IMG/VR virus record: IMGVR_UViG_3300046459_000427
Location: 32,001 to 96,000 of that record
From: a virus
Reading direction: 5' to 3' (one strand)
DNA length: 64,000 nucleotides
Part shown: positions 4,149 to 62,829 of the stretch, piece by piece
Layout: every line of letters starts with the position of its first letter
Position numbering within the stretch: position 1 is the stretch's first letter
Made by a program: the position numbers and the translations under genes
Notes under the pieces: generated by a model
Seen by the model: only the letters and a program-made list of their open reading frames with translations
What the model was told of the DNA's origin: nothing
Database searches by the model: none

Positions 4149-4547
4149 TTACTTGCTAGATGTTGGCGTTTCCGTAACCGTTTCCTTCGGGCACGGAATC
4201 TTGACCTGCACGGAATGCGTGTGCTCAAGCCCGTATACGGGGGCGTACGGCGTGGCCGAAGACGTAGGTGCGGGTATTGCGGGGGAAGGCCCGACCACGA
4301 GCGATACCTTGCACGTGCCCGGGGATTTCGACTTCGTCGCTTTCGGCGTCGGCGCAGACAGATACCGGGTCACCGTGGGCACAGGCTGCGGAGTAGAATC
4401 CCCTTCAATCGCCGGAGAATCCGACTGGGAATTCTCGGTATGAAGCCCCGAGAAATCCGACTGGGGAACTACCGAGATCCCAATCGCGGGTACGGCGAGA
4501 ATTCCGATTGCCACAAGGGCGACTTTGATGCGCTGGAGTCCGTTCAT
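4149..4547 (-). CDS. membrane-anchored or secreted Pro/Thr/Ser-rich protein
   Basis: N-terminal hydrophobic segment VALVAIGILAVPAIGISVV; ATGA overlap with upstream gene. Confidence 0.7.
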   Translation of the reverse strand: MNGLQRIKVALVAIGILAVPAIGISVVPQSDFSGLHTENSQSDSPAIEGDSTPQPVPTVTRYLSAPTPKATKSKSPGTCKVSLVVGPSPAIPAPTSSATPYAPVYGLEHTHSVQVKIPCPKETVTETPTSSK

Positions 4548-4693
4548 ACCAGCACCGTACCGAAGCCCTCGCAGTGGACACAGTCGGCGCCTTCGCGGTC
4601 CTCACCGGACCCGTAGCACCGCTTGCAGTCGATCTCCTCTGCCGCGCCCTCGCCGGTTTCGGCGAAAGACACTGCATGCACGTGTGCGCTCAT
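4544..4693 (-). CDS. small DnaJ-like zinc-finger protein (49 aa, not in ORF track)
   Basis: MSAHVHAVS...CKRCYGSG...CVHCEGFG, two CxxCxGxG repeats; stop overlaps next ATG. Confidence 0.7.
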   Translation of the reverse strand: MSAHVHAVSFAETGEGAAEEIDCKRCYGSGEDREGADCVHCEGFGTVLV

Positions 4694-4705
4694 GAGAAGT
4701 ACTAA

Positions 4706-6244
4706 CTAACCTTCCTGGTTGATGTAAGTTGGTACATCGACTATTTCGGCGTCGATGAAACCGGTTGAGGACTCGATCATCCGGTCCGCCGGAACGGGCC
4801 TGTCGAGTGCCGTCATCTGCTCCCCGGCGTCGCGGCCGAAGATACGGCTGATCATACCGGCCCCACCGCCATTCCCCTTAGCCTCCAGTTTCACGGAGAA
4901 GGAATCCTGCTCCAGTTCCGTCTTCACCTTCACGAGTTTCTGAAGCCGGTCGATCTCACCCGACAGGTTCGGATCCGCGTAGCCACCGGTCATATCCTCG
5001 ACCATCTTCATGAAGAGGACCCGCTGCGCCTGCATCTCGATGAGTGAATTCTGGAGCGACTGCATCTGCTGCTTGCTCTTCACTTCGACCGGGATGTCGT
5101 ACGCGCAGTTGGCATTCTGGTCGAAGGCCGGGCACTTCGAGGACAGGAAGCATGACGAGCAGGCCCGCATCGACTGGCTGCGCACGGTCAGGAGAGGGAT
5201 GTCCCGCTCCTTGTTCACGCCGTCCTCGGGGTCGGTGTAGACCTCCTTCTCCTGCACCAGGCCGATGACCGGCAAGTTGGTACGCGGGCGGTCCTTCCGG
5301 GCGCCGGGAGTTGTCACCGGGTTGAGCATTTTTCCGGCCTCCGTATCAACTTCACTACCCTGCAATTGAGCGAAACCCGAAAGTACCCCTCCGGCAGAAG
5401 TAGTAACTGCTTGAGCCTCCTGCGGCCGGTGGTCATCAATCGAGGCCGCCAACTGCTGCCACGACCAGATGGTGAACCGCAGTACTTCGTCGTTCTCTCC
5501 TGCCTCGATACGGTCGGCATCGAAGCCCGCCTCGGTAAACAGCGTGCGGTGCCTTTTACGCGCCTGGTCCTTGTACTTCTTCGGATAGCGCTTCAATTCC
5601 CGGCCGGTCCACACAATGGTGTCACCGTACTGGGAAGGGGAAAGCCAGGAGGTCGACGCGACGCTGTCCCAGTTCACGGCAGCCATTTCCGCAGGCTTAG
5701 TCATAGCCACTCCGTGGAGTAGCGTGCCGTATTTCCTGGTGATCTCGTTGAGCACCGGAGTGAGATTCCGGCCGTCGAGATCTGTCTGCGTCACGCCGAC
5801 GCGCTTATACCTCTGGGCGAGTTTATCGAGTTCGTCTACGCCCCATTCCGAATGCCATATCGGAAGGAACTTGTCTTCCGGCAGGTCCTCGTAGAAGTCC
5901 TCTCGCCGGGCCTCGATCCATTCCCGTCCGAGAACGACAGCGTCGAACTCGGACACCATATGAAGGGAATCGATGTTCTGCTGGACGAATGCCTCGTAAT
6001 GCGCGGCGATGTCTTTCAATTCACCGACCGAGTACTTGTCGTCTTCGGCCTTGTTGACCGTGTAGGCGCCGGAGTCCAGGAAGACCTTCTGGCTGTCGAG
6101 GTAGTTGTCCTCGATCAGCCAGGGCCTCGTGAACTTGGTCCGGCGCCGCAGGCCTATGTACGAGAGGGAGACGGTTTCGACGCCTTCCTCGGCCAGCATC
6201 TTGCGCCAGCCGGGAATCTCGGATCCGCCAAGGAAGAGGTGCAC
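4706..6244 (-). CDS. TGT/DpdA-like (queuine tRNA-ribosyltransferase-like) protein with C-terminal Cys-cluster domain
   Basis: KVFLDSGAYT, FLPIWH, LLHGVA, WDSVASTSWL resemble the TGT-like barrel motifs; C-terminal CSSCFLSSKC...C. Confidence 0.6.
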   Translation of the reverse strand: MHLFLGGSEIPGWRKMLAEEGVETVSLSYIGLRRRTKFTRPWLIEDNYLDSQKVFLDSGAYTVNKAEDDKYSVGELKDIAAHYEAFVQQNIDSLHMVSEFDAVVLGREWIEARREDFYEDLPEDKFLPIWHSEWGVDELDKLAQRYKRVGVTQTDLDGRNLTPVLNEITRKYGTLLHGVAMTKPAEMAAVNWDSVASTSWLSPSQYGDTIVWTGRELKRYPKKYKDQARKRHRTLFTEAGFDADRIEAGENDEVLRFTIWSWQQLAASIDDHRPQEAQAVTTSAGGVLSGFAQLQGSEVDTEAGKMLNPVTTPGARKDRPRTNLPVIGLVQEKEVYTDPEDGVNKERDIPLLTVRSQSMRACSSCFLSSKCPAFDQNANCAYDIPVEVKSKQQMQSLQNSLIEMQAQRVLFMKMVEDMTGGYADPNLSGEIDRLQKLVKVKTELEQDSFSVKLEAKGNGGGAGMISRIFGRDAGEQMTALDRPVPADRMIESSTGFIDAEIVDVPTYINQEG

Positions 6245-6270
6245 GGTTAGGTTCTCCGAATCTGCTTGGG

Positions 6271-6927
6271 TTACTTCGGGGGCTGGACGGCGCTCTTCGG
6301 GAAGAGGCCGGGCTGGGTGACGCGGGGCTTCTTGGCGGCCGGAGCGCCCCCAGCGCCCTTCTGCCGTGGGCCTGCCGTCGCGGCCAGACCGAACTGCTGC
6401 GGGGAACGGACCGGGGCGACCTGACTCGGACCGAACAGACCGGCCTGGACGACGCGCTGCGGCTTGGCGGCCGGTGGCGGGGTCTGCGGGGCCGACTGCA
6501 CCGAGGTACTGGCGTGGGTGCCGAACGCTGCGTGGAAGTCGTCCCAGGCCCCACCGGAGGGCTTGCTCTGCGCCTGGATGCCGTTCATCCGGGCGTTGAA
6601 GGTATGAAGGAGGTCGGAGGCCGCGCTGGAGTGCTGGGCGTGCCAGGCGTCGAGGCTGGAGGAGTGGTCCTCGCGCACCCGCTGGATGTCGGCGTGGTTC
6701 TTGATGCCGTTGGCGATGCCCTCGCGGCTCATCACGCGGGCGGCCGGGCTGGTCTGTCCCTTGGCGCGGCTCTTGGTACGGCCGCTGGACGGCTGGGCGA
6801 CGTTGCGGGAGTTCTCCAGGTCGCTGACGCGGTCCTCGACGGTGCGGCGCGAGCCTGGGAACTGGAGGGGCTGGAGGTAGCGGTCGCGGAACTGGGTTGC
6901 TATGGAATGAAAGACGGAGCCACTCAT
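6271..6927 (-). CDS. hypothetical low-complexity protein
   Basis: ATG 6927 (MSGSVFH) overlapping upstream stop; contains QAGLF and QPGLF. Confidence 0.7.
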   Translation of the reverse strand: MSGSVFHSIATQFRDRYLQPLQFPGSRRTVEDRVSDLENSRNVAQPSSGRTKSRAKGQTSPAARVMSREGIANGIKNHADIQRVREDHSSSLDAWHAQHSSAASDLLHTFNARMNGIQAQSKPSGGAWDDFHAAFGTHASTSVQSAPQTPPPAAKPQRVVQAGLFGPSQVAPVRSPQQFGLAATAGPRQKGAGGAPAAKKPRVTQPGLFPKSAVQPPK

Positions 6928-7723: not shown

Positions 7724-8577
7724 CTGTGCTCGTGCTCGTGCAGGCCCTCGCGGTGTTCCTGCTCGTGCTTGCGGATGACGCGTTCGGGTGTGCCGCCCAG
7801 GTTCGGGCTGTAGCCGTGGTGCTTGACCAGGTGCTCGATGACGCCGGGGTGCGGTGTCTTGTTCCGCTTGATCTTGTCGACGGGTTCGGCGTGGAACTGG
7901 TCGAGGTTCAGCACATGGGCGCCGATGTGGGTGTCTCCCCGGCCGCGCGCTTCGGCGAGCCGGTGGTGCGCGTCGGCGACGTAGGGGGTGCCTCCCTTGA
8001 TGACCACCTTGACGTGCGGGTGGTCAGGGGCCAGCGGGCCGGTGATGTAGGAGTGCGAGCCGGTCTCGTACGCAGTCTGGCCGGTGTGCAGAACGGCGCT
8101 CGTGCTGATGCTCTGGAACTTGGCGTGCTTGTTCCAGAAGGCCTCGTTGCCGTCGCTCATCTGCGGGCCGTGCTTCTCGTACCACTTGTCGTCGATCTTG
8201 GGGTCGACGATGTTGCCGTGGCCGTCGAGGTGCCCGAACTGCTGCGGGTTGTGAGGCGGGCCCATGACCATCTGCCCGTGCGCCTGCGGGTAGTTGGTGC
8301 GCTCCTCGTCATGGATGAGCGTCTCGTCGCGGGCGGCGCCGAGCGAGGTGACCTTGGTGAACATCCCGCCGCTGTGAGGCGTGGGATGCCCGATATGAAG
8401 CGCGCCAGGTTTGGCCTGGAGGTGCAGCGGCGTGTCCTTGTTCAGGTGGTACGCCGCGCGGAGCGCGGTCTGCTTCTGTCCTTGCTGAGAGACCCGGCTG
8501 CCCAGGGGGATGGGCAGGGCGGTCTGCTCGAACTGTGGACCGGCGGTGTCCGGCTTGCTGCGGGAAGGGGCCATCAC
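7720..8577 (-). CDS. ParB/Srx-like nuclease-domain protein
   Basis: VVIKGGTPYVADAHHRLAEARGRG matches the ParB-N DGHHR motif. Confidence 0.6.
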   Translation of the reverse strand: MMAPSRSKPDTAGPQFEQTALPIPLGSRVSQQGQKQTALRAAYHLNKDTPLHLQAKPGALHIGHPTPHSGGMFTKVTSLGAARDETLIHDEERTNYPQAHGQMVMGPPHNPQQFGHLDGHGNIVDPKIDDKWYEKHGPQMSDGNEAFWNKHAKFQSISTSAVLHTGQTAYETGSHSYITGPLAPDHPHVKVVIKGGTPYVADAHHRLAEARGRGDTHIGAHVLNLDQFHAEPVDKIKRNKTPHPGVIEHLVKHHGYSPNLGGTPERVIRKHEQEHREGLHEHEHR

Positions 8578-9643: not shown

Positions 9644-10030
9644 TCAGATCTTGAGAGAAGCGCGGAGTTGTGCCTCCTGCGCCTGCCGCTGCATCGCCTG
9701 GCCGACCGCCATCATCTGCTGCTGGGTACGCTGGGCCGTCTCCATGACGGTCAGGTCCTTCTGCACCACGGCGACGGCGCCGAAGATGTCGTCCGGGGTG
9801 GCTCCTCGCCGGGGGACGAACTTCTGGGTCAGGTCGCTGGTGGCGACGACTGCGCCGTCCAGGCCGACGGCGACGAGGAACGCGGTGGTGACCGGGGTGC
9901 CGATCTCGTCCTCGGCGGGCGGGTTCTCCTCCGCCATCTTGGCCAGGGCTGCCCGCTGCTCGTCGGTGAGATCGGTATGAAGCGCGTCGTCGTTCTTCGT
10001 GGGGGTCTGGCCGAGGATCGGGATGCTCAT
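9644..10030 (-). CDS. hypothetical protein
   Basis: ATG 10030 (MSIPILGQ) after GGAG. Confidence 0.75.
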   Translation of the reverse strand: MSIPILGQTPTKNDDALHTDLTDEQRAALAKMAEENPPAEDEIGTPVTTAFLVAVGLDGAVVATSDLTQKFVPRRGATPDDIFGAVAVVQKDLTVMETAQRTQQQMMAVGQAMQRQAQEAQLRASLKI

Positions 10031-11257: not shown

Positions 11258-12148
11258 TCACGCCTTGACGGTGAACAGGCCGCTGGCCGTGGCCAGCTTC
11301 GTCAGGGACTGAAGGCCCGGGGCGCCCTTGGCGTCGTTGCCCTGGTAGCCCTTCTTCCGGCGGAAGAGGTCGTAGGCGTCCTGCGTCTTGGTGCCCCAGG
11401 AGCCGTCCACCCACCTCGCGTCCAGGTAGCCCAGCGCCGACAGCGCCTTCTCGACGAGCAGGACATCGGCCTTGTGGGTCGTGTGGCCCGTGGCCGCCGG
11501 GAGATCGGCCTTGCGGGCCGCCACGACGTTGGAGACGTCCACGACCGGCTTGGCCGCAGGCTTCGGAGCGGGCTTGGCCGCAGGCTTCGGAGCGGGCTTC
11601 GGGGCGGCCGGAGTGGCCGAGGTATGAAGCGAAGGGTTCTGCGACTTCCACGCCGGGTCGGCCGACTCGATACCGCCCGGGTATTCCGGGTAGCCGTAGC
11701 CGTAGACGTGCGCATCGGTCCGGATATGGGTCTTCGAATAGACCCCGTCGCCTTCGGCTGAACCATTCACGTTCGTATTGCCTTCGACGGAATACACGTG
11801 AGTCGCGTCGAATCCGATGACGACCCCGGTGTGCTCACCGCCGCCCGGACCGTAGAAGACCTGCGCACCGATGGCGGGGTACTCGGACCAGCGCTTGCGG
11901 GCCTTGTACCAGGAAACGCCGGTAGCGCACGAGGCGGTAACCGGGTAGGAGCCCTTCGGCAGGCCCGCCGTCTGGAAAGCCCACGCCGCGAATACGGCGC
12001 ACCAGGCACCCTCGACGTTGTCGACCCATTCCAGGCCGGGGACCTTGTCGGCGTACTTCTCGTGGTTGTTCCAGTGGCCGTTGGAATAGCCCTCGTGGTA
12101 CCCCACCTCGGCCTTTACGACCTTGCTGAGAGTGTCGGTCAAAGACAT
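11258..12148 (-). CDS. endolysin (CHAP/amidase-like domain + peptidoglycan-binding domain)
   Basis: AWCAVF, GEHTGVV, SVEGNT catalytic motifs; PAPK linker; VDGSWGTKTQDAY binding motif. Confidence 0.9.
   Translation of the reverse strand: MSLTDTLSKVVKAEVGYHEGYSNGHWNNHEKYADKVPGLEWVDNVEGAWCAVFAAWAFQTAGLPKGSYPVTASCATGVSWYKARKRWSEYPAIGAQVFYGPGGGEHTGVVIGFDATHVYSVEGNTNVNGSAEGDGVYSKTHIRTDAHVYGYGYPEYPGGIESADPAWKSQNPSLHTSATPAAPKPAPKPAAKPAPKPAAKPVVDVSNVVAARKADLPAATGHTTHKADVLLVEKALSALGYLDARWVDGSWGTKTQDAYDLFRRKKGYQGNDAKGAPGLQSLTKLATASGLFTVKA
11547..11599. repeat. 24-bp tandem repeat encoding the endolysin PAPKPAAK linker
   Basis: GGCTTGGCCGCAGGCTTCGGAGCG x2 plus partial copy. Confidence 0.9.
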
Positions 12149-12854: not shown

Positions 12855-14110
12855 CAGAACAACTTCTGCTGGCCCGGGTGGACCTCGGTATGAAGCCCGT
12901 TCTTGCCGTAGGTGTTCAGCGAGGAGTCGTGGTTGTCACCACGGCGCCGCTTCTCCTCCGACCACTGCGCGGACTGCATGTTGGTCAGGGAGTTCAGTCC
13001 GCGCTCCTGCATGACGTTGCGGGCGACGTGGTCGTGGAAGGCGTGGATGCCCTTGATACCCATGTACGCCTGCTGGCTGCCGGAGCCCTTCTTGTCCTCC
13101 AGGTGCGGCGCGAAGGCACCACCACCGGAGTGCGTGTCCGACACCCAGAACTGTGAGGAGCCGTGCGGGTCCACCCACGAGTTGTGATAGGCGCCGACCT
13201 TCTCACCGGCCGTCGGCTTCCATGCGTTCGACAACTGCTTGCCGTTGAGGACCTGGTGCGTCACGTCGATCGCCAGGGCGTGGTTACGGGGGTACCCGTT
13301 GGCCGGGTAGGCGCGGGTGTCGCCTTCCTTCTTCACCAGTTGCGTGAACTGCTTGCCCGACTTCGAGGTGACGGTCTTCTCCACCTTGTCCTCGCGCGGG
13401 ACGTAGTAGTCCTTGTGGTAGTGGTAGTCCTCGCCGGTCTTGCCGGATTTGGCCCACTGGATCGCGTGGCTGGCCGCCTGGTCGTTGGGGTAGACCGCCT
13501 TGCCCGTCTCCTTGTCCGGCCGCACGAACACGTTCTGCGGGGACGTGATGGCGTTCGCAGCGGCCTGAACGCCGAAGGGGACACCGTTCTCCTTGGCCGA
13601 GGTCTTCAGACGCGCACGCGGGCTCAGGGAACCGTCCCGGGTGTGGTCGTCGGCCGGGCTGTAGAACGAGTCGTGGTGCCCGCCCTCGTGCGCGTACGCA
13701 CGGTCGACCTGAGAGGCCAGGGCGCGGTGAGCGGAGTCGGGGGTAACACCGAACTTGGCGGCCGAGCGCAGCACGCGGGACTGCTCGGCAGGTGTGTGGT
13801 CCTCCCACCGACGGTTGACCGGCATCATGTCCCTGACCGGGTTCATGGTGTGCTGGCCGTGCCAGACATCAGACCCCTTCGGGCCCTCCAACTCCATCTG
13901 CCCGTGCAGGTTCGGAGCCTTGTCGGTGTTGCCCATCAGCCGGTACGACTGGCGGGGACTGGCTCCGGCTCCGGGCTTGTCCTGGATGGTCGTAAAGCGC
14001 TGCGGGTTGGCGGCCTCGTAGGACTGCCGCTTGGCCGAGGCGTCCTTGACGGTCTTGTTGTAGGCGCGGGTATCCGCAGCCTTCTGTGCTGGGGTCTTGC
14101 TCGCAGCCAT
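12854..14110 (-). CDS. putative DNA glycosylase-like (HhH-GPD-related) phage protein
   Basis: motif series AITSPQN...KVGAYHNSW...WVSDTH...MQSAQW recalls phage glycosylase-like helical domains; ends QQKLF. Confidence 0.45.
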   Translation of the reverse strand: MAASKTPAQKAADTRAYNKTVKDASAKRQSYEAANPQRFTTIQDKPGAGASPRQSYRLMGNTDKAPNLHGQMELEGPKGSDVWHGQHTMNPVRDMMPVNRRWEDHTPAEQSRVLRSAAKFGVTPDSAHRALASQVDRAYAHEGGHHDSFYSPADDHTRDGSLSPRARLKTSAKENGVPFGVQAAANAITSPQNVFVRPDKETGKAVYPNDQAASHAIQWAKSGKTGEDYHYHKDYYVPREDKVEKTVTSKSGKQFTQLVKKEGDTRAYPANGYPRNHALAIDVTHQVLNGKQLSNAWKPTAGEKVGAYHNSWVDPHGSSQFWVSDTHSGGGAFAPHLEDKKGSGSQQAYMGIKGIHAFHDHVARNVMQERGLNSLTNMQSAQWSEEKRRRGDNHDSSLNTYGKNGLHTEVHPGQQKLF

Positions 14111-16205: not shown

Positions 16206-16810
16206 GCGAAGGCCAGGATCTCCCTGACCTTGGTATGAAGGTCTTCGAGGGTGCCGTCGTTGACCAGGCGGACGTCGAACCACTTGTCCGGGAGGGGCTT
16301 CTCCGACTTGTGGTCGTTGACGGCGCCGATGCCGGGCCGGTCGATCTTGATGAGCAGGCCGAGGCGGGAGTCGATGGCGTGGTGCTCGTTCTCGAACCGC
16401 AGGTCGGTGAAGACGTACTTCTTGTTCTCGTCGAGGTTCTTGAAGGCGGCCTTGACCCACACGTTCTGGTCGATCATCTCGCGGCCGACCTCGGTGCCCA
16501 GGACCTGGAGCATCCGGCGGATCTCCTCGTACTGGCGCTTGGCGTCATCCCAGCCGAGGTTGTCCACGAGGTCCTGGACGCGGAGGTGGTAGCCGTACTC
16601 GTCGGTGATGATGATCGGGTTGAGGACGTACAGGGCCTCGCGGAGGTTGTCGGCGAAGGCGACGGCGGTGTAGCCGTAGTCGGCGAGGATCTTGGCGACG
16701 GTGTCCTTGCCTGCGCTCGGGTAGCCGTGGAGGCCGACGAACTGCGGGAGCCAGGACTCGATGATGTCGTGGCCGTCGGTGGCGGTGGCGGTGGCGGTGG
16801 CGGTGGTCAC
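16202..16810 (-). CDS. deoxynucleoside monophosphate kinase
   Basis: GYPSAGKDT P-loop, AFADNLRE, RRMLQVLGTEVGR, FTDLRFENE. Confidence 0.9.
   Translation of the reverse strand: MTTATATATATDGHDIIESWLPQFVGLHGYPSAGKDTVAKILADYGYTAVAFADNLREALYVLNPIIITDEYGYHLRVQDLVDNLGWDDAKRQYEEIRRMLQVLGTEVGREMIDQNVWVKAAFKNLDENKKYVFTDLRFENEHHAIDSRLGLLIKIDRPGIGAVNDHKSEKPLPDKWFDVRLVNDGTLEDLHTKVREILAFA
16777..16806. repeat. CGGTGG x5 microsatellite (Thr-Ala repeat at kinase N-terminus)
   Basis: five tandem hexamers. Confidence 0.85.
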
Positions 16811-17728: not shown

Positions 17729-18405
17729 TTGGCGGACACCTTGCTCTTCGGCGCCTCGTCGTTCTTGATCGTGGCCTTGAAGAAGGCCCCGGCCGCGTCG
17801 TGCCAGACGACGACACCTTCGGGGTCCTGGAAGCCTGGGGCGATGAAGGAGCCGTCCGACTCCAAGGTATGAAGCGCGATGTTGACGGCGTAGTTCAGGT
17901 CGTTGCCGTTGGCGACCAGGATGACCGGGACGACGGTGACCTCCGGCGGGGCCGGTACGGCCTTGGGGAAGGTCGTCAGGTACTGGTCGGTGACCTCGGG
18001 GTCGCGGATGTCGTACCAGCGGTTGACGTTGAAGAGCGCGAATCGCTTCTCGTCGAGGCCGTAGCCGGACTGGATGCCCTTGCCGAACCACTCGCCGTAG
18101 TGGCGGCCGGGGCCGAGCGCGGTCAGCGCCACGGAGTTGTCGAAGACCCAGTTGGCGAAGCCGAAGTTGTCGTTGTTCCGGTCCAGCCAGCGGTTGCGGC
18201 TGCCTGCTCGGACGATGAAGGGTTCGTTGTCGCGGTAGGCGAGGACTCCCTGGGAGACGTCCTGGGTGTCGGCGTCGAAGTCCGCGAGCGGGGTGATCTC
18301 GATCAGGCCGTTCGTGCCGTCGACCTTCTCGGTAAGCACGACCTTGCGGTGCAGGCGGGGGATGGGGCGGAACTTCGGGTAATCGCTGGCCTTGAGGATG
18401 GTCAT
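17725..18405 (-). CDS. RNA ligase (Rnl2-like nucleotidyltransferase domain)
   Basis: TEKVDGTN (KxDG), GSRNR, YGEWFG, FALFNV, PEGVVV, FKATIK. Confidence 0.85.
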   Translation of the reverse strand: MTILKASDYPKFRPIPRLHRKVVLTEKVDGTNGLIEITPLADFDADTQDVSQGVLAYRDNEPFIVRAGSRNRWLDRNNDNFGFANWVFDNSVALTALGPGRHYGEWFGKGIQSGYGLDEKRFALFNVNRWYDIRDPEVTDQYLTTFPKAVPAPPEVTVVPVILVANGNDLNYAVNIALHTLESDGSFIAPGFQDPEGVVVWHDAAGAFFKATIKNDEAPKSKVSAK

Positions 18406-20603: not shown

Positions 20604-20941
20604 GGCAGTATCTCCTCGGCGTCCATTTCCGGATGCGCCAGGGCATGAAGCGCCAGGAAAGTCTCTTCGGACATCGTGATCCAGTTCCTTCCACCGGACA
20701 TCTGAGTCCCGAAGAGCATTTCCCTGCCATCGATCAGGGCTTGCTTCTCTGCGGTGATCAGTTCTTTTTCTTTGAGCGAGTACGAGCCCTTACTGGTGAC
20801 CTTGTACTCGATCGAGTAATCCGGAGTGCGGACGTCGTTCTTTCGCACCCAACCGTTGCCGCTACCCGCGTTCACCGTCCCGCCGAGGAGTTCCGCTCCC
20901 CGCCGCTCCTGCCTCTGGCTCTTCTTGAGCATGTCCGCCAT
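20597..20941 (-). CDS. Holliday-junction resolvase-like PD-(D/E)xK nuclease
   Basis: QERR...GSGNG...KNDVR...IEYKVT; ATG 20941 after GGAGG. Confidence 0.75.
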   Translation of the reverse strand: MADMLKKSQRQERRGAELLGGTVNAGSGNGWVRKNDVRTPDYSIEYKVTSKGSYSLKEKELITAEKQALIDGREMLFGTQMSGGRNWITMSEETFLALHALAHPEMDAEEILPW

Positions 20942-21074: not shown

Positions 21075-22258
21075 CAGGCGGCCTGGGTATGAAGCCCGTC
21101 GGCCTCTTCCGGCTTCGGCCGTCGGCTGACCTTCTTGGTGCCCGAGTTCTCGGCGGCCGTCAGGTCGTCCTCGGAGATGGAACGCTCATCCGCGTGCTGC
21201 GAGGCGGCGAGGACCTTTTCGTAGAGGAATTCCTGGAGGTCCAGGTCCTCTCGAATTGCGGCGAGGGTGTTCTCCTTGCTGTGCCAGCGAAGGACGGGCT
21301 TTCCCCTGTCGTCGTATTCGCCGTTGTCGACCTCGTAGTAAGCGCCCGCGCGCTTGATGACGTCGAAGAGGATCCCCATGATCATGATTTCCTTTGTGGT
21401 GTCGAAATCACCACGGGTGAAATTCAGATAGGGAGCGGAGCGGAAGTAGGCGTCGATCGTGGCGATCTGCTGCGGGGCCGCCGACTTGTTCTTGATGGTC
21501 TTCACCTTGATGACCTGGCCGACGTTCACCTTGCCCTTTCCGGGCCGAGGCTCCTGAATCCACTCGTCGCGTCGGACTTCCACCCTGGTGTAGAACGCAT
21601 AATTCTTCGCGTTTCCGCCGGGGGTTGTGGTCGGCGTGCCGTGCGGGGAGAACTTGCCGATGGCGTCGCGGTACTGGTTGATGACGATGCCGAGCAGCGG
21701 GCGGTCCTCGGGGTCGGTCATGCTGCGCTTCGTCGCGGCGCCGGACTTCCGGAAGAACTTGCCGGTGAGACGGGCGCCCAGCGCCATGGTCGCCTCGTCC
21801 ATGTCCTTCTCGGACTCCTCGTCCGGTATGAGCGCCGGGTAGGAGTCGAGGACGATCATGTCGACCGAGCGGGACGTCGCGAAGTCGAGCATGGTCTGGT
21901 AGGCGAATTCCATGGCCTGGGTGGGGACGACGATCACGCGGTCGTTGTCGACGCCCAGCGCTTCGGCCTGGTCGGTGTCGTAGTGCTCTGCGGCGATCCA
22001 CAGGCACGTGAAGTCGGGGTCCTTCTTCTGGTTGGCGGCCAGCGTCTTGTAGACGATGAAGGTCTTGCCGTGGGACTCACGGCCGATGACCTCGACCCAC
22101 TGGTTGCCCGGCCAGCCACCGCCGAGGGCGATGTCCAGGGAGAGGGAGCCGGAGGTGAAGCGCTTGGCCACGCGCATGTCCGAGGCGAAACACACGGCAC
22201 CCGGATGGGTCTTGTTGATCTTGGCGAGAAGTGCGAGGGCGTCCTTGTTCACGCTCAA
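21074..22258 (-). CDS. recA: RecA recombinase
   Basis: SGSLSLDIALGGG, GRESHGKT Walker A, IVLDS Walker B, INQYR, TPGGNAKNY; start probably TTG 22258 or GTG 22252. Confidence 0.95.
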   Translation of the reverse strand: MSVNKDALALLAKINKTHPGAVCFASDMRVAKRFTSGSLSLDIALGGGWPGNQWVEVIGRESHGKTFIVYKTLAANQKKDPDFTCLWIAAEHYDTDQAEALGVDNDRVIVVPTQAMEFAYQTMLDFATSRSVDMIVLDSYPALIPDEESEKDMDEATMALGARLTGKFFRKSGAATKRSMTDPEDRPLLGIVINQYRDAIGKFSPHGTPTTTPGGNAKNYAFYTRVEVRRDEWIQEPRPGKGKVNVGQVIKVKTIKNKSAAPQQIATIDAYFRSAPYLNFTRGDFDTTKEIMIMGILFDVIKRAGAYYEVDNGEYDDRGKPVLRWHSKENTLAAIREDLDLQEFLYEKVLAASQHADERSISEDDLTAAENSGTKKVSRRPKPEEADGLHTQAA

Positions 22259-22333
22259 CAGGGGCCCCCGTAGGTATGAAGTCGCATGTGTGGTGTTACT
22301 CCTGATCCGATAGCGCGGAAGCGATAACGAAGA

Positions 22334-27368: not shown

Positions 27369-28178
27369 TCAGTCGTTCAGGATCTCGCGGGCGATCTGCT
27401 TGAGTTCGTTGCGCGTGTTCACCTGGAGGACGTCCTCGTCGTACGCCTTGTCGTCGAACTCCTCCAGGTCCTCCTCGGTCAGGGGCTCGACGTCCCAGTC
27501 ATCGAGGAGGTCCCGCTCCTTCACGGGGGTGATGTAGTAGGTCGTCTTGTTGTTCTTGGACTGCTTGGAGACGGAGAAGTACAGGTCGTCCCGGTTGATC
27601 GGCGCCGTCTTCTTGTCCTTGGAGTAGTTCTTGAGGATGTCCGCGACCATCGGGCCGAACTGCCAGATCTTGACCTGCGGGTCCTCGGGGTCGGTGAAGT
27701 CGACGACGTTGAAGCAGACCTGCTGGGAGGGCTTGTCGCCTGCGTCGTCGCACAGGGGGCAGCGGGACTCCAGGCACGTCCAGGACCGCTTGCCCTTGCG
27801 CTCGATCCAGTGCTGGAGGAAGACCAGGAACGGCTCCTCGTCGAGGATCTTCACGACCACGGCCTCGCCGGTCACCTTGAAGTTCTCGGGGAAGCCGGAC
27901 GTGGCGCTCTTGGTCTTCTCGTACGAGCCCCATCCCTTGCCGCCGACCTTCGGGGTGGGCTCGTCGTCCTCGTCGTCCTCCTGGGAGCGACGCGAGCGAC
28001 GGGAGGAGGTGTCGGCCTCCTCGGTATGAAGCGACTGGCGGCGCGAGCCACGGCGGGAGCCCCGGGCCGGACGCTCGTCCTCGTCGTCCTCCGGGAGGTT
28101 GTTGTCCTCCGGCTCGTCGGCGGGGGTGTAGGCCTCGGTGGACGCGGCGGTGCGGCGGCGGGTGAGGGTGCGGGGCAT
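27369..28178 (-). CDS. single-stranded DNA-binding protein (gp32-like, putative)
   Basis: QHW...TCLESRCPLC, FNVVD, KIWQFG, acidic tail; adjacent to polA; ATG 28178. Confidence 0.65.
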   Translation of the reverse strand: MPRTLTRRRTAASTEAYTPADEPEDNNLPEDDEDERPARGSRRGSRRQSLHTEEADTSSRRSRRSQEDDEDDEPTPKVGGKGWGSYEKTKSATSGFPENFKVTGEAVVVKILDEEPFLVFLQHWIERKGKRSWTCLESRCPLCDDAGDKPSQQVCFNVVDFTDPEDPQVKIWQFGPMVADILKNYSKDKKTAPINRDDLYFSVSKQSKNNKTTYYITPVKERDLLDDWDVEPLTEEDLEEFDDKAYDEDVLQVNTRNELKQIAREILND

Positions 28179-29448: not shown

Positions 29449-29802
29449 TTACGCCTTCTTGAAGGCATCCCGGAACGCCTGGCGGGCAGCGTAGCGGCGG
29501 GCCGCTTCGTCCTTCTGGTCACGGCGGAGGACCGTCTCGGCCACGTCCTGGTAGACGGTGACGACGCGCTTCTCTTCCGGGTCGACGACGGCCACGAGGT
29601 CCCCCCGGATGTGCCGAACCTGTCCAGGAACGCGGCCCGAGGGGTAGGTATGAAGCGGCTCGTTTGCCGCGAGGAGAACGTCCGCGCTGCTCCAGCCCTT
29701 GGCGGCGGCCTGCTGCTGCGCGTGGTGGGTCAGCCGGTAGGTCGGTGCGTCAGTGACGGCTGCGGACCAGGTGATGCCAAGGGTCTCTGCGATGGTGGCC
29801 AT
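29449..29802 (-). CDS. DUF4258-like protein (toxin/RNase-like fold, putative)
   Basis: YRLTHHAQQQAAAKGWSSADV...P...VAVVD...VVTVY pattern. Confidence 0.65.
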   Translation of the reverse strand: MATIAETLGITWSAAVTDAPTYRLTHHAQQQAAAKGWSSADVLLAANEPLHTYPSGRVPGQVRHIRGDLVAVVDPEEKRVVTVYQDVAETVLRRDQKDEAARRYAARQAFRDAFKKA

Positions 29803-48500: not shown

Positions 48501-49143
48501 CCCCCGGCGCAGAGGGCACTGGGGGCGGCGTCGAGGAGGAGGCGCTGGTGATGTTGCCCGAGGCCCACAGGGAGGCGTTGCTGGAGTTGTCGACTGCCTG
48601 CACGCGGACCGTGACGTCCACGCCGGTATGAAGCCCGTCGAGGACGACGAGGGTGTCCTGGGTGACCTGTCCCCCGGACCAGTTCGTGCCGTCGTAGGAC
48701 ACCTGGAGGACGTAGTGGGAGAGGTCGGTGAGGTTGGTACCGTCCTGGTTCTCCGTCGGCGCGGTCCAGCTCGCCTGTATGCGTGCCAGGGTCGAGCCCT
48801 CGGTGGTGACGTACTGCACCGTGGTAAGGGTCAGCGCGGTCGGTTCCTTGGGCGGCAGACCGTCCAGGGTGTCGCCGGTCGGCAGGCCGTCGACTGCGTC
48901 CTGAACGTCCTTGATGCCCAGCGGGGAGTAGACCGGCTTGGTGAGGTCACCGCCGGAGAACTGAACCCACAGGGTCTGCCCGACCGGGGGCACCGTGTTC
49001 GTCGGGGATGCCGGGACGGCCCAGGCGCTTTCCGCGCTTCCCAGGACCTGGGGAATCAGCAGGGTAACCCGTGCCTCATTCAGCGGGTCCTGGTTATTGG
49101 AAACACTTCCCCGGTACATGCCCAGTATCGGCTCAGCCGACAT
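45562..49143 (-). CDS. baseplate spike/fibre: gp5/VgrG OB-fold fused to FN3 and carbohydrate-binding-like domains
   Basis: GMYRGSVSNNQDPLNEARV...PPVGQTLWVQFSGGD...PVY; FN3-like repeats; NLVTNPGFE. Confidence 0.8.
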   Translation of the reverse strand: MSAEPILGMYRGSVSNNQDPLNEARVTLLIPQVLGSAESAWAVPASPTNTVPPVGQTLWVQFSGGDLTKPVYSPLGIKDVQDAVDGLPTGDTLDGLPPKEPTALTLTTVQYVTTEGSTLARIQASWTAPTENQDGTNLTDLSHYVLQVSYDGTNWSGGQVTQDTLVVLDGLHTGVDVTVRVQAVDNSSNASLWASGNITSASSSTPPPVPSAPGVTGVLGGLRVTWDGKDASGFAMPAIFSHVQVQRDTDPAFSNPVVVGTLPGPDFLYDSVQNYASAYNYRLVSYSKVAIASAPSAANSGTAKQAGTADIAANSVTANQMAVGTLTAESGIIASLDASKMKTGTLDASLVNVTNLDAGSIKVGTLTVDKLSAGLQGMVGQKFYDFGANASKWKNSNSTGTLTSVSVTDAASGGAVMRATGYIQGAYRPDLLVPFDPSVTYRVTCRVRQTVNNATPGSAQGFYAGVTGIAADGVTLVNATGLNTVSSQFYVAAQGTTLTTGSGWALYTGYIKGTSSTVTSNRPYPNPTAPGTLHQNVKYISPCLYLNYSGGTGTAEMDMFTIEVVETGQVNSSNISLGNVNASHLTLGTVSGNLVTNPGFEDTSKKGWTLTQSDSSGAATSAKIEVGEGSAAARTGQGKASLGVMNTGTATVTSDPFPVVAGDTYMCRYWYSGSGRLKVNFETSVDKVTWTDQIAGANDVSISAVPYTEDQAEVIIPTGALWGRVSFTQINPGSFGGSTTLWSWLTVDDILVMREGYGATDISPGGLRLYGPDGNLTTELSTANSYATFAAGAAAIDPNGVGTFTSIWTPPRPETAVSDDPTGQIWYQGKELSDLLWNMPWGIVTYERGWTNKPTSTTYYTTDTGIIELAFTAVEGRMYRIVARSQFDMNGGTGLQTMENYINASGTTLSVNGCTTVTPNGASPKVTDPTIARHIYTFYDGAGTDNTCAVEGIIVCSSDAGALYGATSALAPGDHRLLWVGAKHSGNATGWGLRNYSIAQSSDFYVEDVGPAQHEGGIYNTGGAAVTAVKTYTKTYKALWSRRYGNAGYTDGAMYQGYYSDTWGTQKSMVGFGTQPYTDMGSTAKVSKVEVYLYANHWYYNAGGTAHIGAHSQTSAQTSSTYSGNLTVASWPVGAGKWVTLPSSWNSSWNAATPYRGITLGGDLGTSTNKTYYGGFDGFGGAHPPQLRITYSK

Positions 49144-54536: not shown

Positions 54537-55388
54537 AAACAGGTCCCCCGCACTGATGAAGAGGGGGACCTCCTTTCCGCACGTATCGTGCGTGAACTTG
54601 ACATCATTGTACTGAGGGCCCGGCTGCTTTTCCTCAATGGCATCGAGGATGCGCTTTCGGTCCACGATGCCCAGGGAACGCGCGAAGTCCGGGTTTCCAC
54701 TGACGGCGTTTTCGCTACCATCGGCCTCGACCACGGAAATGAGGCAGCGGGAAATCAGGAGCGTGTTCTGCTCGGATTCCGTGGTGCGCTCGACGATGGC
54801 GAGGATTGCGTCCTGGTCGGCGCCGATGGGAAGTCGGGCGTATGCCTTGCGGCCCTTTCGGAGTTCGACTTCGAAGACGCGGTCGGACGGGTTTGCCAGT
54901 CGGCGGACGGGGATCTCGTCGAGGGTGACGGACAGGCGGAACTCATCACCGCAGTGCGGGCAGGAGTAGCGGTCCCAGACGATCTCCTCGCCGTAGGTCG
55001 CGCGCCGGATCTCCAGCAGCAGCGTGTCGCGGTCGCCGAGCAGGAGGTTGCTGAGCAGCGCGGGGCTGGACTTCTGGTCGCCCACGGAGACGGTGCCGCT
55101 GTCGAGCAGGGTGGAGATGAACTTGCCGATGCCGCCGTTGCGGGCCTTGGTGATGGCCTCTTCATCGGCGCCGGTCAGTTCCCGGACCTCGGCGTCGTAG
55201 CGGGCATTGGTGAAGTCGTTGTCCGAAACGAAACCGCCCGGCAGGCGGAACTGGCCACCTGCCGGGACGGCTATCTCGGGCTTGGCGACCTCGGCCCCCT
55301 GGGAAAGCAATGCCGCGATGGCAGCATTTGCCTGACCAGGGTTGGAGAGAGGGCTGGAGAACCCCTCGGTATGAAGGTCGTTTGCCAC
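54525..55388 (-). CDS. tail assembly chaperone (T4 gp26-like)
   Basis: VRELTGADEE, LLLGDRDTLLLEIRRATYG, CPHC; between tube and tape measure. Confidence 0.8.
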   Translation of the reverse strand: MANDLHTEGFSSPLSNPGQANAAIAALLSQGAEVAKPEIAVPAGGQFRLPGGFVSDNDFTNARYDAEVRELTGADEEAITKARNGGIGKFISTLLDSGTVSVGDQKSSPALLSNLLLGDRDTLLLEIRRATYGEEIVWDRYSCPHCGDEFRLSVTLDEIPVRRLANPSDRVFEVELRKGRKAYARLPIGADQDAILAIVERTTESEQNTLLISRCLISVVEADGSENAVSGNPDFARSLGIVDRKRILDAIEEKQPGPQYNDVKFTHDTCGKEVPLFISAGDLFQGL

Positions 55389-58826: not shown

Positions 58827-59642
58827 TCAGTACCCCCAGGATCCGAAGACGCTGGAGGGGATCCCGGACTCGTCGTCGTTCTGGTGGCCGGGTCCGATGG
58901 GCGGCAGGATCCGCTGCGGCAGGGTGTGCTCGTCGTACTCACGCTCACGGAACAGCGGCACGAGACGGCCGGTCGTACGAGAGACGCGACGCAGGTTGGT
59001 GACCTCGATCGAGTACAGGCCGACGCCCAACTTCTCGCAGAGGGTCTTGTACCGCTCGGTGAGCATGCCGATCTGTGTCTGGATCTGGGCGAAGCGCTGG
59101 CCCCGGTCGACAGAGGTGCCGTCCGAGGTCTGGACGTTGATGTCGGTGGCCGCATCGGTGGACAGCGCCCACATGGCCTCGGTGCACGCGAGGAGAACCA
59201 CGAGGGCGTCCTCCTCGGCCGGGAGGTTGTCGACGCTCACAGGCACCTGGTCGTACTGGAGGAAGCCGTTGGCGTCCTTGTAGCGGGTGGAGACGGTACG
59301 GCCCCGGGTGTGCTGGGCCACAGCGTCGTCCAGGTAGATGTCCAGCTCGTCGTCGGAGAACAGCCCGTACGAGGATCCCGACACCAGCAGCAGTGCGTCG
59401 AGCGCGAGAGGCTGGGTCAGGTCGAGGATGCCGCTCAGGTCGTCGATGACGTAGTCGGTGGGGGTGCTCAGCGTGGTCTGCTGGCCCCCCGAGATATGAA
59501 GTACTTCGAGGCCGGTCACGTTGTTCGCGCTCAGTTCGTACTGTGCGACGTCCCCTGTGCCACGGATGGTGTCGCGGAACGGCTGGAGCCGGTCGCCCAG
59601 CTCGCTGCGTACCCGCGTGCGCAGTTCTTGGAGAGTTGCCAT
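58827..59642 (-). CDS. head-tail adaptor/neck protein
   Basis: LRTRVRSELGD, FSDDELDIYL; synteny. Confidence 0.65.
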   Translation of the reverse strand: MATLQELRTRVRSELGDRLQPFRDTIRGTGDVAQYELSANNVTGLEVLHISGGQQTTLSTPTDYVIDDLSGILDLTQPLALDALLLVSGSSYGLFSDDELDIYLDDAVAQHTRGRTVSTRYKDANGFLQYDQVPVSVDNLPAEEDALVVLLACTEAMWALSTDAATDINVQTSDGTSVDRGQRFAQIQTQIGMLTERYKTLCEKLGVGLYSIEVTNLRRVSRTTGRLVPLFREREYDEHTLPQRILPPIGPGHQNDDESGIPSSVFGSWGY

Positions 59643-60831: not shown

Positions 60832-60867
60832 GGGGAGCGGTTCTGGTAATCCAGAAAACCGCTCCCC
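60832..60867 (-). terminator. hairpin terminator after major capsid gene
   Basis: GGGGAGCGGTT / AACCGCTCCCC inverted repeat. Confidence 0.75.
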
Positions 60868-60934
60868 TAACCACGTGGACTAGCCGGTTGCCGCGACTAC
60901 CAACTCAACTTGCATTCCTTTCGGAATGGCAGGC

Positions 60935-61927
60935 TCAGTTGGTCTCCGCGATCAGGACGGCCTGGTCGGTGATGAGGCCGAGGCCCCAAATCGCGTACCA
61001 CGCCAGGGCGTGCTCTCGGCCGAAGTCGAGAATTCCGCCGTCACGCAGTTCGACCGGAAGCGAGATCGCGTGGCCGAATGCGTTGTCGCCCAGGAAGATG
61101 GACTGGTAGACCGTCTTGCCGGTGGCGTTGGTGACCTGCTTGACCTGGGTCGTCTCGATGAAGACGACGTCGTTCAGGCGGCCGATCTCGCCCAACATGA
61201 AGTTCCCCGGCGCGGCGTACTTGGTGACCTCGATGAACTCAGGGTCATCGCGCAACTTGCGGGACTGGTGCGGGTGGACGAAGCAGACGTAGGTCTCGCC
61301 CAAGCGCGGGACGTTCTTCGTCGCCAGGGTCTCGACGGCGTCCTTGACCAGCGCGGCGGTGAAGTCGAACTGACCGGTCAGGCCGTCGGTGGAGGTGGCA
61401 GCGGTGCCGTGGTCGTACGGCGACAAGATGGTACGGGTCGCGTTCGCCGTGGTGTCGAACTTGTTGTAGCCCCAGATCTTCGAGGAGGCCTGGAGCAGGG
61501 TGTCCCTCGCGGAGGCATCCAGGTAGAGAGCCATGTTGCGGCCCAGCAGGCGGGAGGCCGACGCCATGACGTCGTCGAAGGAGGCGTTGAGCAGGAGTTC
61601 GGAGACGGCGACGGCGTAGCCGTGCTCGGCGACCGTGATGGAGAACTGAGAGGCCGACAGGGCGTTGGTCTGCATGCGGACGCCTTCGACCAACTGCGAG
61701 GCAGCGCCGAGGTTGTTGTAACGCATGAAGTTGATCGTCAGACCGGGCTGAACGCCCAATTCGGTCTTCTTCACCGCGAACTGCTCGAAGCGGAGAATCG
61801 GCATGGACTGGAACAAGATCTCCTTGCTCCAGATGGTCTGGATGGCCGCACCGAGAGTGCTGTTGGCGCCCGAGTAGTTCGTCGGGGAAGCCGACAGGTT
61901 CGGGGTACCAGTGATCGCGCTTGGCAT
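60935..61927 (-). CDS. major capsid protein
   Basis: 330 aa after scaffold; LRFEQFA, YVCFVHPHQ, GEIGRL, DFGREHALAWY. Confidence 0.9.
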   Translation of the reverse strand: MPSAITGTPNLSASPTNYSGANSTLGAAIQTIWSKEILFQSMPILRFEQFAVKKTELGVQPGLTINFMRYNNLGAASQLVEGVRMQTNALSASQFSITVAEHGYAVAVSELLLNASFDDVMASASRLLGRNMALYLDASARDTLLQASSKIWGYNKFDTTANATRTILSPYDHGTAATSTDGLTGQFDFTAALVKDAVETLATKNVPRLGETYVCFVHPHQSRKLRDDPEFIEVTKYAAPGNFMLGEIGRLNDVVFIETTQVKQVTNATGKTVYQSIFLGDNAFGHAISLPVELRDGGILDFGREHALAWYAIWGLGLITDQAVLIAETN

Positions 61928-61962
61928 ACTGTGAATTCCTTAGTTACGGGTACTCGACCGAA

Positions 61963-62829
61963 TTACGAGTACAGTCCACGCTGGTTCTGGGCTGCCTGAC
62001 CGACGCCCAACTGGCCCCGAATCTTGGCGTACTCCGACATCGGCATGTTCTGAAGGTCAGAAAGGGAGTACGACTTGTGCCCCGGATCAGTGTCCATAGG
62101 TCCGGTGGTGGAATAGCCGGTGGGGCTCACACCACGCATGGAGGCTCGCTGCTGAATAGCGGCCTGCTGGACCGACTCCAGGATAGCCTGGGTCTTCGCC
62201 TTGACTGTATTGAGCGAGTTCTCGACTTCCTCCGGCGTATTACCGCCGACGAAATCGAGGAGTTCCGGAGCGATATTCTCGCTCTCCTCGCCGACACGTC
62301 GCTGGATGTACGTCTGGAGGTTGTTGAACTCCTGCTCCTTCTGGAACAGAAGACGCTCCTGCTCGCGCTCCGTCTCGAACTGCTGGAGACGGGAGTTCCA
62401 CTCCTGCTCCTTGACCGCGAGGAGTTCCTTGGCCGACAGGTCTTCCTCGGCCTTGGCCTTGGCGACCTCCTGGGCCTGGCGCTGACGCTCGGCCTCCTGA
62501 GCCTGCGCGGCCTCACGGGCCTTGCGCTGCTCTTCGATCTCGGCGAGGAACGTCTTGTTCTGCTCCTCCACGTTCTGGAGGCGCTTGTACAACTTGTCCT
62601 TCTCCTCCTGCCGCGCCTTCTGGATGTCCTCGGCAGTGAAGCGAGGCTCGGCGGGCGGGGTCGCAGGCGGCTCGACGACAGCGGCCGGGACGACGATGAC
62701 GGGGTCGCCACCCTCACCGGGCTGCGGAGCACCACCTGCGATGGAGTAGATCGGGCGGCCGTCCTTGCGGTGGCCGAGGATCTCGTGGTTACGGGCCTGC
62801 TCGGAGAGGCCGGAAGTATGAAGCGTCAT
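61963..62829 (-). CDS. capsid scaffolding protein
   Basis: coiled coil, FTAEDIQKARQEEKDKLY, ends MPMSEYAKIR; between portal and capsid. Confidence 0.8.
   Translation of the reverse strand: MTLHTSGLSEQARNHEILGHRKDGRPIYSIAGGAPQPGEGGDPVIVVPAAVVEPPATPPAEPRFTAEDIQKARQEEKDKLYKRLQNVEEQNKTFLAEIEEQRKAREAAQAQEAERQRQAQEVAKAKAEEDLSAKELLAVKEQEWNSRLQQFETEREQERLLFQKEQEFNNLQTYIQRRVGEESENIAPELLDFVGGNTPEEVENSLNTVKAKTQAILESVQQAAIQQRASMRGVSPTGYSTTGPMDTDPGHKSYSLSDLQNMPMSEYAKIRGQLGVGQAAQNQRGLYS

Follow-up and report, generated by a model that had tools for sequence, protein, structure and literature searches.

Stoperators and UUA control are two of the described systems that come closest to the element reported here. 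Cluster A mycobacteriophages such as L5 and Bxb1 carry stoperators, 13-bp sites in duplex DNA that are bound by the immunity repressor (PMC6550527, PMC9283540). In Streptomyces, precedents are provided by UUA/bldA control, including an upstream open reading frame (uORF) of adpA in which a UUA codon lies 5 nt ahead of the main start and ribosomes pause, and by the terminase of phage Hau3, which is a UUA sensor (PMC10732093). Here, we analysed a motif that reads CTTCATA in the sense of the genes and recurs in a stretch of 64,000 nucleotides (hereafter the window), bases 32001-96000 of the 104,853-bp viral record IMGVR_UViG_3300046459_000427. We found that the motif occupies a single codon phase, that its copies outside called genes lie in open reading frames (ORFs) as well, and that sister phages have re-spelled it in concert.

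The record carries a 127-bp terminal repeat that resembles an assembler overlap, and the genome was taken as 104.7 kb. Judged by the periodicity of GC at third codon positions and our own gene caller, 143 of 151 genes lie on the minus strand, so that TATGAAG on the given strand reads as CTTCATA in gene sense. A preliminary description of the window, made from the letters alone, had listed 27 copies of TATGAAG and none in the opposite orientation. All 27 coordinates were exact and the other strand holds no copy, while dinucleotide-preserving shuffles lead one to expect 1.46 for both strands summed. Over the whole genome, one orientation has 39 unique copies and the other a single one.

The claim that the copies share one reading frame was borne out for all 27, which read CTT-CAT-ANN. 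This includes the three outside called genes, one in a 132-aa ORF (4439) and two in leader mini-ORFs (22275, 37169); the other 24 are inside called genes. Genome-wide, the frame is the same in 33 of 33 copies in called genes (35 of 35 with untrimmed sequence). A codon-preserving shuffle had been suggested as a check. Against 34 in-frame copies observed, synonymous shuffling that preserved the proteins gave 1.4 and permutation of codons gave 0.16, and no genic copy of this dataset lies in another frame or antisense. As had also been proposed, the use of T-ending codons exceeds what the peptide demands: the dipeptide Leu-His is spelled CTT-CAT 36 times versus about 0.6 expected, and this pair takes up 36 of the 77 CAT codons and 36 of the 164 CTT codons of the genome. 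The peptide LHT is itself about 7-fold over-represented in the phage proteins. Taken together, both excesses indicate that the sequence has been imposed on the proteins. The motif is present at 34 of 42 LH[T/I..] peptide sites, and the ordinarily spelled Leu-His-Thr that the preliminary description contrasted with it is indeed there (Table 1). The consensus from 127 non-redundant sites is S-G-CTT-[C/A]AT-A-Y-C-(T/G), with no conservation further out. The footprint is about 12 nt, with weaker preferences flanking the three codons (S-G before, T/G after).

Mutational supply and codon usage were considered as sources of the frame lock and rejected for the CAT variant. Near-cognates at distance 3 number 63, 46 and 103 in frames 0, +1 and +2, frame +2 thus being the commonest, and codon permutation likewise predicts frame +2 as the commonest motif frame. 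Moreover, positions at which the motif could be written synonymously in another frame are not used (0 of 11 [APST]-S-Y, 0 of 36 xxC-F-I, 0 of 47 in all). We also rejected a frameshift or bypass product. In the +1 and -1 frames after the motif the distance to the next stop matches controls and no alternative product is evident, and the zero frame continues as conserved protein.

PolA-based scans of IMG/VR yielded about 55 related contigs, which were sorted into motif types. In CAT-type phages, CTTCATA occurs about 0.7 times per kb around PolA. Other relatives, with about 90% PolA identity, have no CTTCATA and instead carry CTTAATA(CC), encoding Leu-Asn-Thr, at equal density and polarity (AAT type). 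In complete or near-complete genomes, strand ratios are 47:1 (G006) and 41:3 (G007) for CTTMATA, and 39:1 (G011) and 29:1 (G013) for the 9-mer. A comparison of orthologues, also suggested beforehand, revealed the AAT form at the orthologous codon for 18 of the 27 window sites; the remaining positions include CTG-CAC-ACC or CAG-CAC-ACC, and sites have been gained and lost among the relatives. The near-variant CTT-CAT-GCC, which had been pointed out, is present and marks a decayed site, of which relatives have the intact form. The switch from CAT to AAT alters only the first base of the middle codon, i.e. the base read by tRNA position 36, and it replaces His by Asn at once in at least 18 unrelated proteins. 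It also destroys the ATG of the complementary ATG-AAG, for which reason a role of the motif as start of a leaderless antisense ORF was rejected.

Genic copies in the first nine genomes analysed all run in sense and in frame 0, apart from three 'antisense' hits in G007; these lack the YC extension and represent gene starts with ATG-AAG that occur by chance on the other strand. A more distant relative (G009, 67%) has the form [C/G]TT-CAT-AC-N, with nine of nine copies in sense, eight of them in frame 0 of called genes and one, likewise in frame, in a 31-codon ORF; GTT-CAT is found there five times versus 0.06 expected. All variants retain U-ending wobble codons (CTT/GTT, CAT/AAT). On one CAT-type contig (L037; G008:8177-8183), a single CTTAATACC stands where relatives have CTTCATACC, possibly an intermediate or a recombinant. 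In G012 (62%) we found a looser [C/G]TT-CTA-G pattern with a polarity of about 3.6:1 and raised CTA usage, which contains the palindrome CTAG and is a possible analogue of the motif. The same genome (L133-L137) encodes 18 tRNAs, including a tRNA-Leu(UAG) cognate to its CTA codon; its CTAG level is 4-5 times that of the relatives, and its 219 CTA codons are mostly in (W)T-CTA-G context. Relatives at 49-57% showed no obvious motif.

The copies outside called genes follow the same rule. Across nine genomes, 34 of 34 such copies have an in-frame ATG, GTG or TTG upstream, and 26 have a Shine-Dalgarno (SD)-like sequence too. Most are in ORFs of 8-24 codons, a few in longer ORFs missed by the gene caller. 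Where the next gene is within range, the stop of the leader ORF is often at -4, -1 or +2 from its start; the stop of MRLHTYGGPC, for example, precedes the GTG start codon of the RecA-like gene by 2 nt. The leader of the replication initiator is MGISLHTYRLLGAAE in the CAT type and MSSRLNINGGFGAAE in the AAT type, the motif being kept while the remaining peptide differs. Further leaders precede a 61-aa gene (MKRLHTYAASVEQGGQR), a gene of 147-151 aa (MPHEQRALHTRLRTTAERT and ...GLNTRLRKAERT) and a 98-aa gene (MTRLNTCPRKGDHR). In the relatives G007 and G001, the 147-aa gene corresponding to window 34676-35119 has a motif-bearing leader ORF of its own. In general the leader peptides diverge between lineages, with LHT or LNT retained. 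Terminator-like hairpins precede both leader ORFs of the window.

The sole opposite-strand copy of the genome is carried by a small divergent gene that neighbours the serine integrase, and it is in the sense and frame of that gene. The same is true in eight of eight genomes, and in AAT types the C of this copy has become A along with the other sites. As this copy is inverted together with its gene, polarity is tied to gene expression and not to replication or DNA ends. Moreover, the genome of Streptomyces sp. NPDC002088 (10.7 Mb), which harbours a CAT-type relative as a prophage of about 105 kb, contains the 9-mer about 41 times in the prophage, nearly all on one strand, and about 31 times outside it on both strands. 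Relative to the host chromosome (10.6 Mb of host DNA), the motif is thus about 130-fold denser in the prophage, and it marks the phage, not the host. Overall, the pattern noted at the outset is real and stronger than first claimed, and the interpretation given to it then is partly supported.

Copies were found in 34 of 152 genes (about 22%). About 78% of the genes have none, so that the motif is not a per-cistron tag; of the mRNA signal favoured in the preliminary description, the reading at the time of translation is what the frame lock and the copies in ORFs support. Its rule that no gene holds two copies is correct within the window, but one gene elsewhere in the genome has two. Genes with at least two copies are depleted in two of three genomes (1 versus 4.8 expected, P=0.011, in G000; 0 versus 4.6 in G007) and not depleted in G006. 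Within genes, copies are enriched 2-3-fold among the first 10 codons and among the last 15. It is concentrated in early and middle genes and sparse in structural genes. In the DNA/RNA-metabolism region there is about one copy per 1.6 kb, and spacing is more regular than random (coefficient of variation 0.63, P=0.015). Among the carriers named before, we recovered NrdJ, PolA, a UvsX/RecA-like protein, a DnaB-like protein, primase, endolysin and tail proteins, while a scaffold protein was not confirmed. A stretch of 17 kb that covers the beginning of the window and sequence upstream, with minus-strand genes of no assigned function, is free of the motif and may be a differently regulated module.

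Table 1. Motif copies and other features of the phage genome. Positions refer to the window unless marked otherwise.
Feature	Position	Strand	Context
Motif copy	4439..4445	-	codon 35 of 132-aa ORF 4149-4547 missed by gene caller; AAT form there in AAT-type phages
Motif copy	5959..5965	-	codon 94, predicted tRNA-guanine transglycosylase (TGT)-superfamily protein 4706-6244; kept in all CAT- and AAT-type genomes
Motif copy	6603..6609	-	codon 107, 218-aa protein (no assigned function) 6271-6927; CAT-type only
Motif copy	8394..8400	-	codon 59, 284-aa protein 7720-8574
Ordinary CTG-CAC-ACC	8083-8091	-	same gene, 7720-8574
Motif copy	9976..9982	-	codon 17, 128-aa protein 9644-10030
Motif copy	11623..11629	-	codon 174, endolysin 11258-12148
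Motif copy	12889..12895	-	codon 406 of 418, gene 12854-14110
Motif copy	16234..16240	-	codon 191 of 202, deoxynucleoside monophosphate (dNMP) kinase 16202-16810
Motif copy	17868..17874	-	codon 178, RNA-ligase-like protein 17725-18405
Decayed site CTT-CAT-GCC	20644..20652	-	relatives intact: CTTCATACC or CTTAATACC at same position
Motif copy	21088..21094	-	codon 387 of 392, UvsX/RecA-like recombinase 21074-22252
Leader mini-ORF MRLHTYGGPC (stop)	22255..22287	-	SD AGGAG; motif 22275-22281, codons 3-5; AAT form in AAT-type phages
Motif copy	22948..22954	-	codon 476, NrdJ-type ribonucleotide reductase 22418-24379; CAT-type only
Motif copy	27243..27249	-	codon 14, DNA polymerase I 25309-27288
Motif copy	28025..28031	-	codon 50, 269-aa protein 27369-28178
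Motif copy	28767..28773	-	codon 35, 153-aa protein 28414-28875
Motif copy	29649..29655	-	codon 50, 117-aa protein 29449-29802; CAG-CAC-ACC here in AAT-type phages
Motif copy	32191..32197	-	codon 8, 65-aa protein 32021-32218
Motif copy	32573..32579	-	codon 203, primase 32229-33185; CTG-CAC-ACC here in AAT-type phages
Motif copy	34418..34424	-	codon 85, DnaB-like helicase 33411-34676; CAT-type only
Motif copy	35151..35157	-	codon 70 of 81, gene 35119-35364; just upstream of 147-aa gene 34676-35119
Leader mini-ORF MGISLHTYRLLGAAE (stop)	37140..37187	-	motif 37169-37175; stop overlaps (GTGA) start of replication initiator 36136-37143
Motif copy	37549..37555	-	codon 327, 409-aa protein 37304-38533
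Motif copy	39128..39134	-	codon 103, 165-aa protein 38943-39440
Motif copy	48627..48633	-	codon 171, 1193-aa tail/virion protein 45562-49143
Motif copy	55370..55376	-	codon 5, baseplate-hub-like protein 54525-55388
Motif copy	59495..59501	-	codon 48, 271-aa protein 58827-59642; closest relatives only
Motif copy	62817..62823	-	codon 3, 288-aa protein 61963-62829
Opposite-strand motif copy	genome 101832		small divergent gene beside serine integrase
Gene with two motif copies	genome 7781-9016
Motif-free stretch	genome 19400-36400 (window 1-4400 and upstream)	-	17 kb
tRNA-His(GUG)	genome 9573-9658 (L009:574-659)	-	86 nt
c-di-AMP riboswitch	genome 10453-10586 (L009:1454-1587)	-	upstream of NlpC/P60 hydrolase gene (genome 9955-10452)
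RNA repair genes	L098:13038-16872	-	adjoin tRNAs
Dyads TGTCAA-N18-TTGACA (examples)	18541-18570, 29871-29900; L098 3760-3789, 12943-12972

We tentatively propose that GCTTCATAYC is a cis element specific to the phage that acts in the course of its own translation, as a programmed slow site or checkpoint that is matched to its middle codon. Of the readings considered, it is the one that accounts for all observed patterns. The functional unit would be a string of three codons, xUU-NAU-AYC (Leu/Val - His/Asn - Thr/Ile), of which about a quarter of the genes have one copy each. These are mainly early and middle genes of DNA and RNA metabolism; the string is also present in short leader ORFs that may be translationally coupled to key genes, i.e. 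those for the RecA-like recombinase and the replication initiator. In a host lacking queuosine, the U-ending first two codons would be read only by G34 tRNAs via G-U wobble, and passage would need a trans-acting factor that fits the initial base of the middle codon. The simplest such factor would be the supply or the state of tRNA-His in CAU lineages and of tRNA-Asn in AAU lineages. As outcome, translation of lytic genes would be gated, and downstream genes would be affected through stop-start coupling or polarity. A reading at the time of translation is favoured since the frame lock survives the controls for supply and codon usage and since the extra-genic copies are in ORFs. It is on the first base of the middle codon that the CAT/AAT switch falls, and the supposed reader would discriminate this base as a tRNA does. 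From these patterns we infer that ribosomes would pause at the motif, that a tRNA or a tRNA-linked reader would be involved and that the consequence would be regulatory.

A wider version of this proposal, which we regard as rather doubtful, is a phage-wide translational code. Here, the ribosome would read a lineage-specific three-codon word in frame, together with a tRNA-linked factor that matches it, and thereby gate the early lytic genes all at once. The middle codon (CAU or AAU) would set an immunity- or compatibility-like specificity between sister phages. Candidate factors for such a code would be a tRNA of the phage, a TGT-like base-exchange enzyme with G34 of GUN-anticodon tRNAs as target in a host without queuosine, or a circuit of tRNA nuclease and repair.

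The phage encodes tRNAs for Asn(GUU), Leu(CAA), Phe(GAA), Pro(UGG) and His(GUG). The tRNA-His(GUG) is unusual and type-II-like, with a long variable arm, a 6-bp anticodon stem and G-1/C73; it scores 52.9 bits with the Rfam tRNA model, and its acceptor stem shows compensatory changes among related phages. It occurs in four of six CAT-type genomes and in none of four others, and tRNA-Asn(GUU) occurs in all. A polynucleotide kinase, an RNA ligase and a nucleotidyltransferase adjoin the tRNAs as a T4-like RNA repair set, and the window encodes a second RNA-ligase-like protein. This repair set suggests that breakage of tRNA or RNA matters in this phage-host pair. A 512-aa protein encoded near the start of the window matches phrog_887, 'queuine tRNA-ribosyltransferase' (E=1e-75), and has no match in Pfam or NCBIfam. 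Its AlphaFold model has a confident N-terminal barrel, for which Foldseek returned Cap10 and many tRNA-guanine transglycosylases as best matches, with probability 1.0, and the protein contains an invariant FLDSGAY block and a cluster of four Cys. It is therefore predicted to belong to the TGT superfamily (tRNA-guanine-transglycosylase/DpdA/Cap10-like), with tRNA, DNA or protein as possible substrate. We did not find QueC or QueD in the phage genome, which has no genes of preQ0 synthesis, nor a TGT in the genome of the Streptomyces lysogen. TGT enzymes act on tRNAs with GUN anticodons (His, Asn, Asp, Tyr), i.e. the readers of CAU and AAU. A link of the TGT-like protein to the tRNAs that read the middle codon is a candidate, for which these data are suggestive only.

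Two side observations concern the same tRNAs. Within the phage tRNA cluster lies a cyclic di-AMP (c-di-AMP) riboswitch (RF00379, 68.8 bits, E=3e-15), upstream of a gene for an NlpC/P60 hydrolase. In addition, the in-frame pair CAG-TTG (Gln-Leu) is 5-6-fold over-represented in several of the genomes G000, G007, G002, G011, G013 and G012 (23 versus 4.6 in G000); TTG is decoded by the tRNA-Leu(CAA) of the phage.

Several points weigh against a reading during translation. Two CAT-type genomes, G007 (complete) and G013 (99% complete), have no tRNA-His, and this tRNA was accordingly rejected as obligatory reader. The gene of the TGT-like protein does not follow the motif type, and relatives that have no obvious motif possess it as well. 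Ordinary host tRNAs read CUU and CAU, so that a special factor may not be required. The preferences that flank the three codons look like the footprint of a nucleic-acid-binding protein. Many sites are inherited and hence not independent. In the AAT variant, other frames are barred by the code (frame +2 contains the stop TAA, and frame +1 contains TTA, which is used 0 times), so that history could account for part of the frame lock; neither the CAT lineages nor the outgroup G009 face such a bar, yet their copies are in frame, as are the sites gained only in CAT lineages. To our knowledge, no mechanism has been described that reads a specific string of 9-12 nt in codon phase. A scan for a reader protein that co-varies with the motif type returned small proteins without family as top candidates and had low power. 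AAT-type genomes form one clade, so that fixed changes are everywhere.

A different explanation is that a phage protein binds the asymmetric motif as duplex DNA and blocks or modulates RNA polymerase in an orientation-dependent manner, silencing lytic genes in the lysogen, with the variants as immunity specificities. Such a stoperator-like function is unlikely, and it fits the data poorly, although the setting would suit it. The phage looks temperate, as judged from its gene content (a tyrosine integrase, a large serine recombinase and a repressor-like protein with a helix-turn-helix), from one AAT-type relative that is a provirus record and from the Streptomyces prophage. Some 40 copies share one orientation relative to transcription, are enriched 2-3-fold towards gene ends and have a footprint of about 12 nt; lineage variants switch in concert. 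These features match the stoperators of cluster A (PMC6550527, PMC9283540). To this extent, the analogy drawn in the preliminary description holds. It does not predict, however, a frame lock without exception, the position of all extra-genic copies in ORFs or the unused sites in other frames. Nor does the repressor-like gene appear to track the motif type, its product being 91% identical to that of CAT-type G007, 66-68% to those of CAT-type G005 and G006 and 69% to that of AAT-type G002; the association scan has low power here. No copy was seen at an obvious early promoter. Moreover, a separate symmetric dyad, TGTCAA-N18-TTGACA, is over-represented in the left arm (4 versus 0.23 expected), and these dyads are probably the conventional operator or promoter sites.

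Recognition of free mRNA, by a phage RNA-binding protein or an endoribonuclease similar to RegB or RegA that directs processing, decay or translational repression, appears distinctly improbable. It would agree with the restriction to the sense strand that follows gene orientation, with the concentration in early and middle rather than structural genes, with the enrichment near starts and with the enzymes for healing and sealing of RNA ends. It would give no reason for the codon phase or for the embedding in translated mini-ORFs. There is also no conserved hairpin context around the motif, which is no more unpaired than control AT-rich 7-mers, and among the phage proteins scanned no candidate RNase or RNA-binding protein was identified.

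It is very unlikely that the motif is the target or guide of base exchange by the TGT/DpdA-like enzyme, which would modify DNA or RNA at or opposite the motif and mark phage nucleic acid as self. The 7-deazaguanines that phage DpdA enzymes insert into DNA are placed within sequence contexts, the phage encodes a TGT-superfamily enzyme that is conserved, and the density of the motif in the prophage would be in line with such a mark. Against this, the phage is without QueC and QueD, the sole G that differs between the variants is missing from the AAT form, the enzyme is found in relatives without the motif as well, and the frame lock would have no explanation.

A signal that is polar on DNA and read relative to replication or DNA ends, such as Chi-like protection from a nuclease, a KOPS-like guide for a translocase, a primase or nick site, or a packaging site, has as a whole only a slight chance of being correct. 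The extreme strand polarity and the spacing of about 1.5 kb, regular in the dense region, speak for it, and rolling-circle nick sites (CTTGATA) resemble the motif. The copy of the divergent gene is inverted with that gene and kept so, and the rarity of the motif in the host chromosome means that a host reader of Chi or KOPS is not expected; the frame lock and the embedding of extra-genic copies in ORFs are left without explanation. We regard the Chi-like, replication and packaging readings as excluded, among them the recombination and packaging signals that the preliminary description had entertained. Finally, a peptide L-H/N-T that is recognised in proteins by a protease or a modifying enzyme is hardly credible, the excess of LHT notwithstanding, given that codon choice is invariant (CTT, CAT/AAT), that CTG-CAC-ACC is left alone, that His became Asn in so many unrelated proteins at once and that the third residue may be Thr, Ile or Met.

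A literature search with the motif sequence returned only primers and unrelated matches, and megablast against annotated phages found no near relative. As far as the searchable literature goes, the statement that the motif is undescribed stands, and we are aware of no described system in which a motif of several codons is genome-wide, locked in frame and switched between lineages. If it is indeed read during translation, it would be the first known viral multi-codon word that serves, genome-wide and in leader ORFs, as a global control point. The concerted re-spelling in sister lineages would then be direct evidence of co-evolution with a reader, and rare-codon control of the bldA/UUA kind would be widened from single codons to codon strings. 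A phage-wide code, if true, would be the translational counterpart of stoperators. A signal read during translation could also tie gene regulation to the tRNAs, TGT-like enzymes and RNA-repair genes that phages carry, and it would offer a handle on phage gene expression in Streptomyces that can be recoded or transplanted. Even for a DNA-binding site, the absolute frame lock would require a new explanation.

How the motif compares with known systems may be summarized as follows. It shares with Chi and KOPS the over-representation and strong strand bias of an oligomer, but these are read on DNA and are frequent in the host chromosome, whereas the motif is oriented with the genes and about 130-fold rarer in the host. 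The +1 frameshift heptamers (CUU-AGG-C of Ty1, CUU-UGA-C of prfB) likewise are units of 7 nt with CUU in the P site, a slowly decoded codon in the A site and one further base; for the motif, no functional or conserved product is evident in the shifted frame. In inhibitory codon pairs of yeast, adjacent codons act only in a given order and frame, and their effect relies on decoding by wobble. In this respect they are similar to the motif, but they are avoided genome-wide, while the motif accumulates and has lineage-specific forms. Cluster A stoperators are similar in that tens of short asymmetric copies are spread over the genome of a temperate actinophage, mostly in one orientation relative to transcription and with lineage variants. 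No reading-frame rule has been reported for them, whereas here a 9-nt core occupies one codon phase inside ORFs and the repressor-like gene does not appear to track the variant. Control by bldA and UUA resembles the motif in its in-frame rare codon, usually once per gene, often early and in some cases in a uORF next to the main start, and it belongs to the same host genus. It differs in that a single codon and one dedicated, regulated tRNA are used there, while here three wobble codons, general G34 tRNAs, about 40 copies and lineage variants are found.

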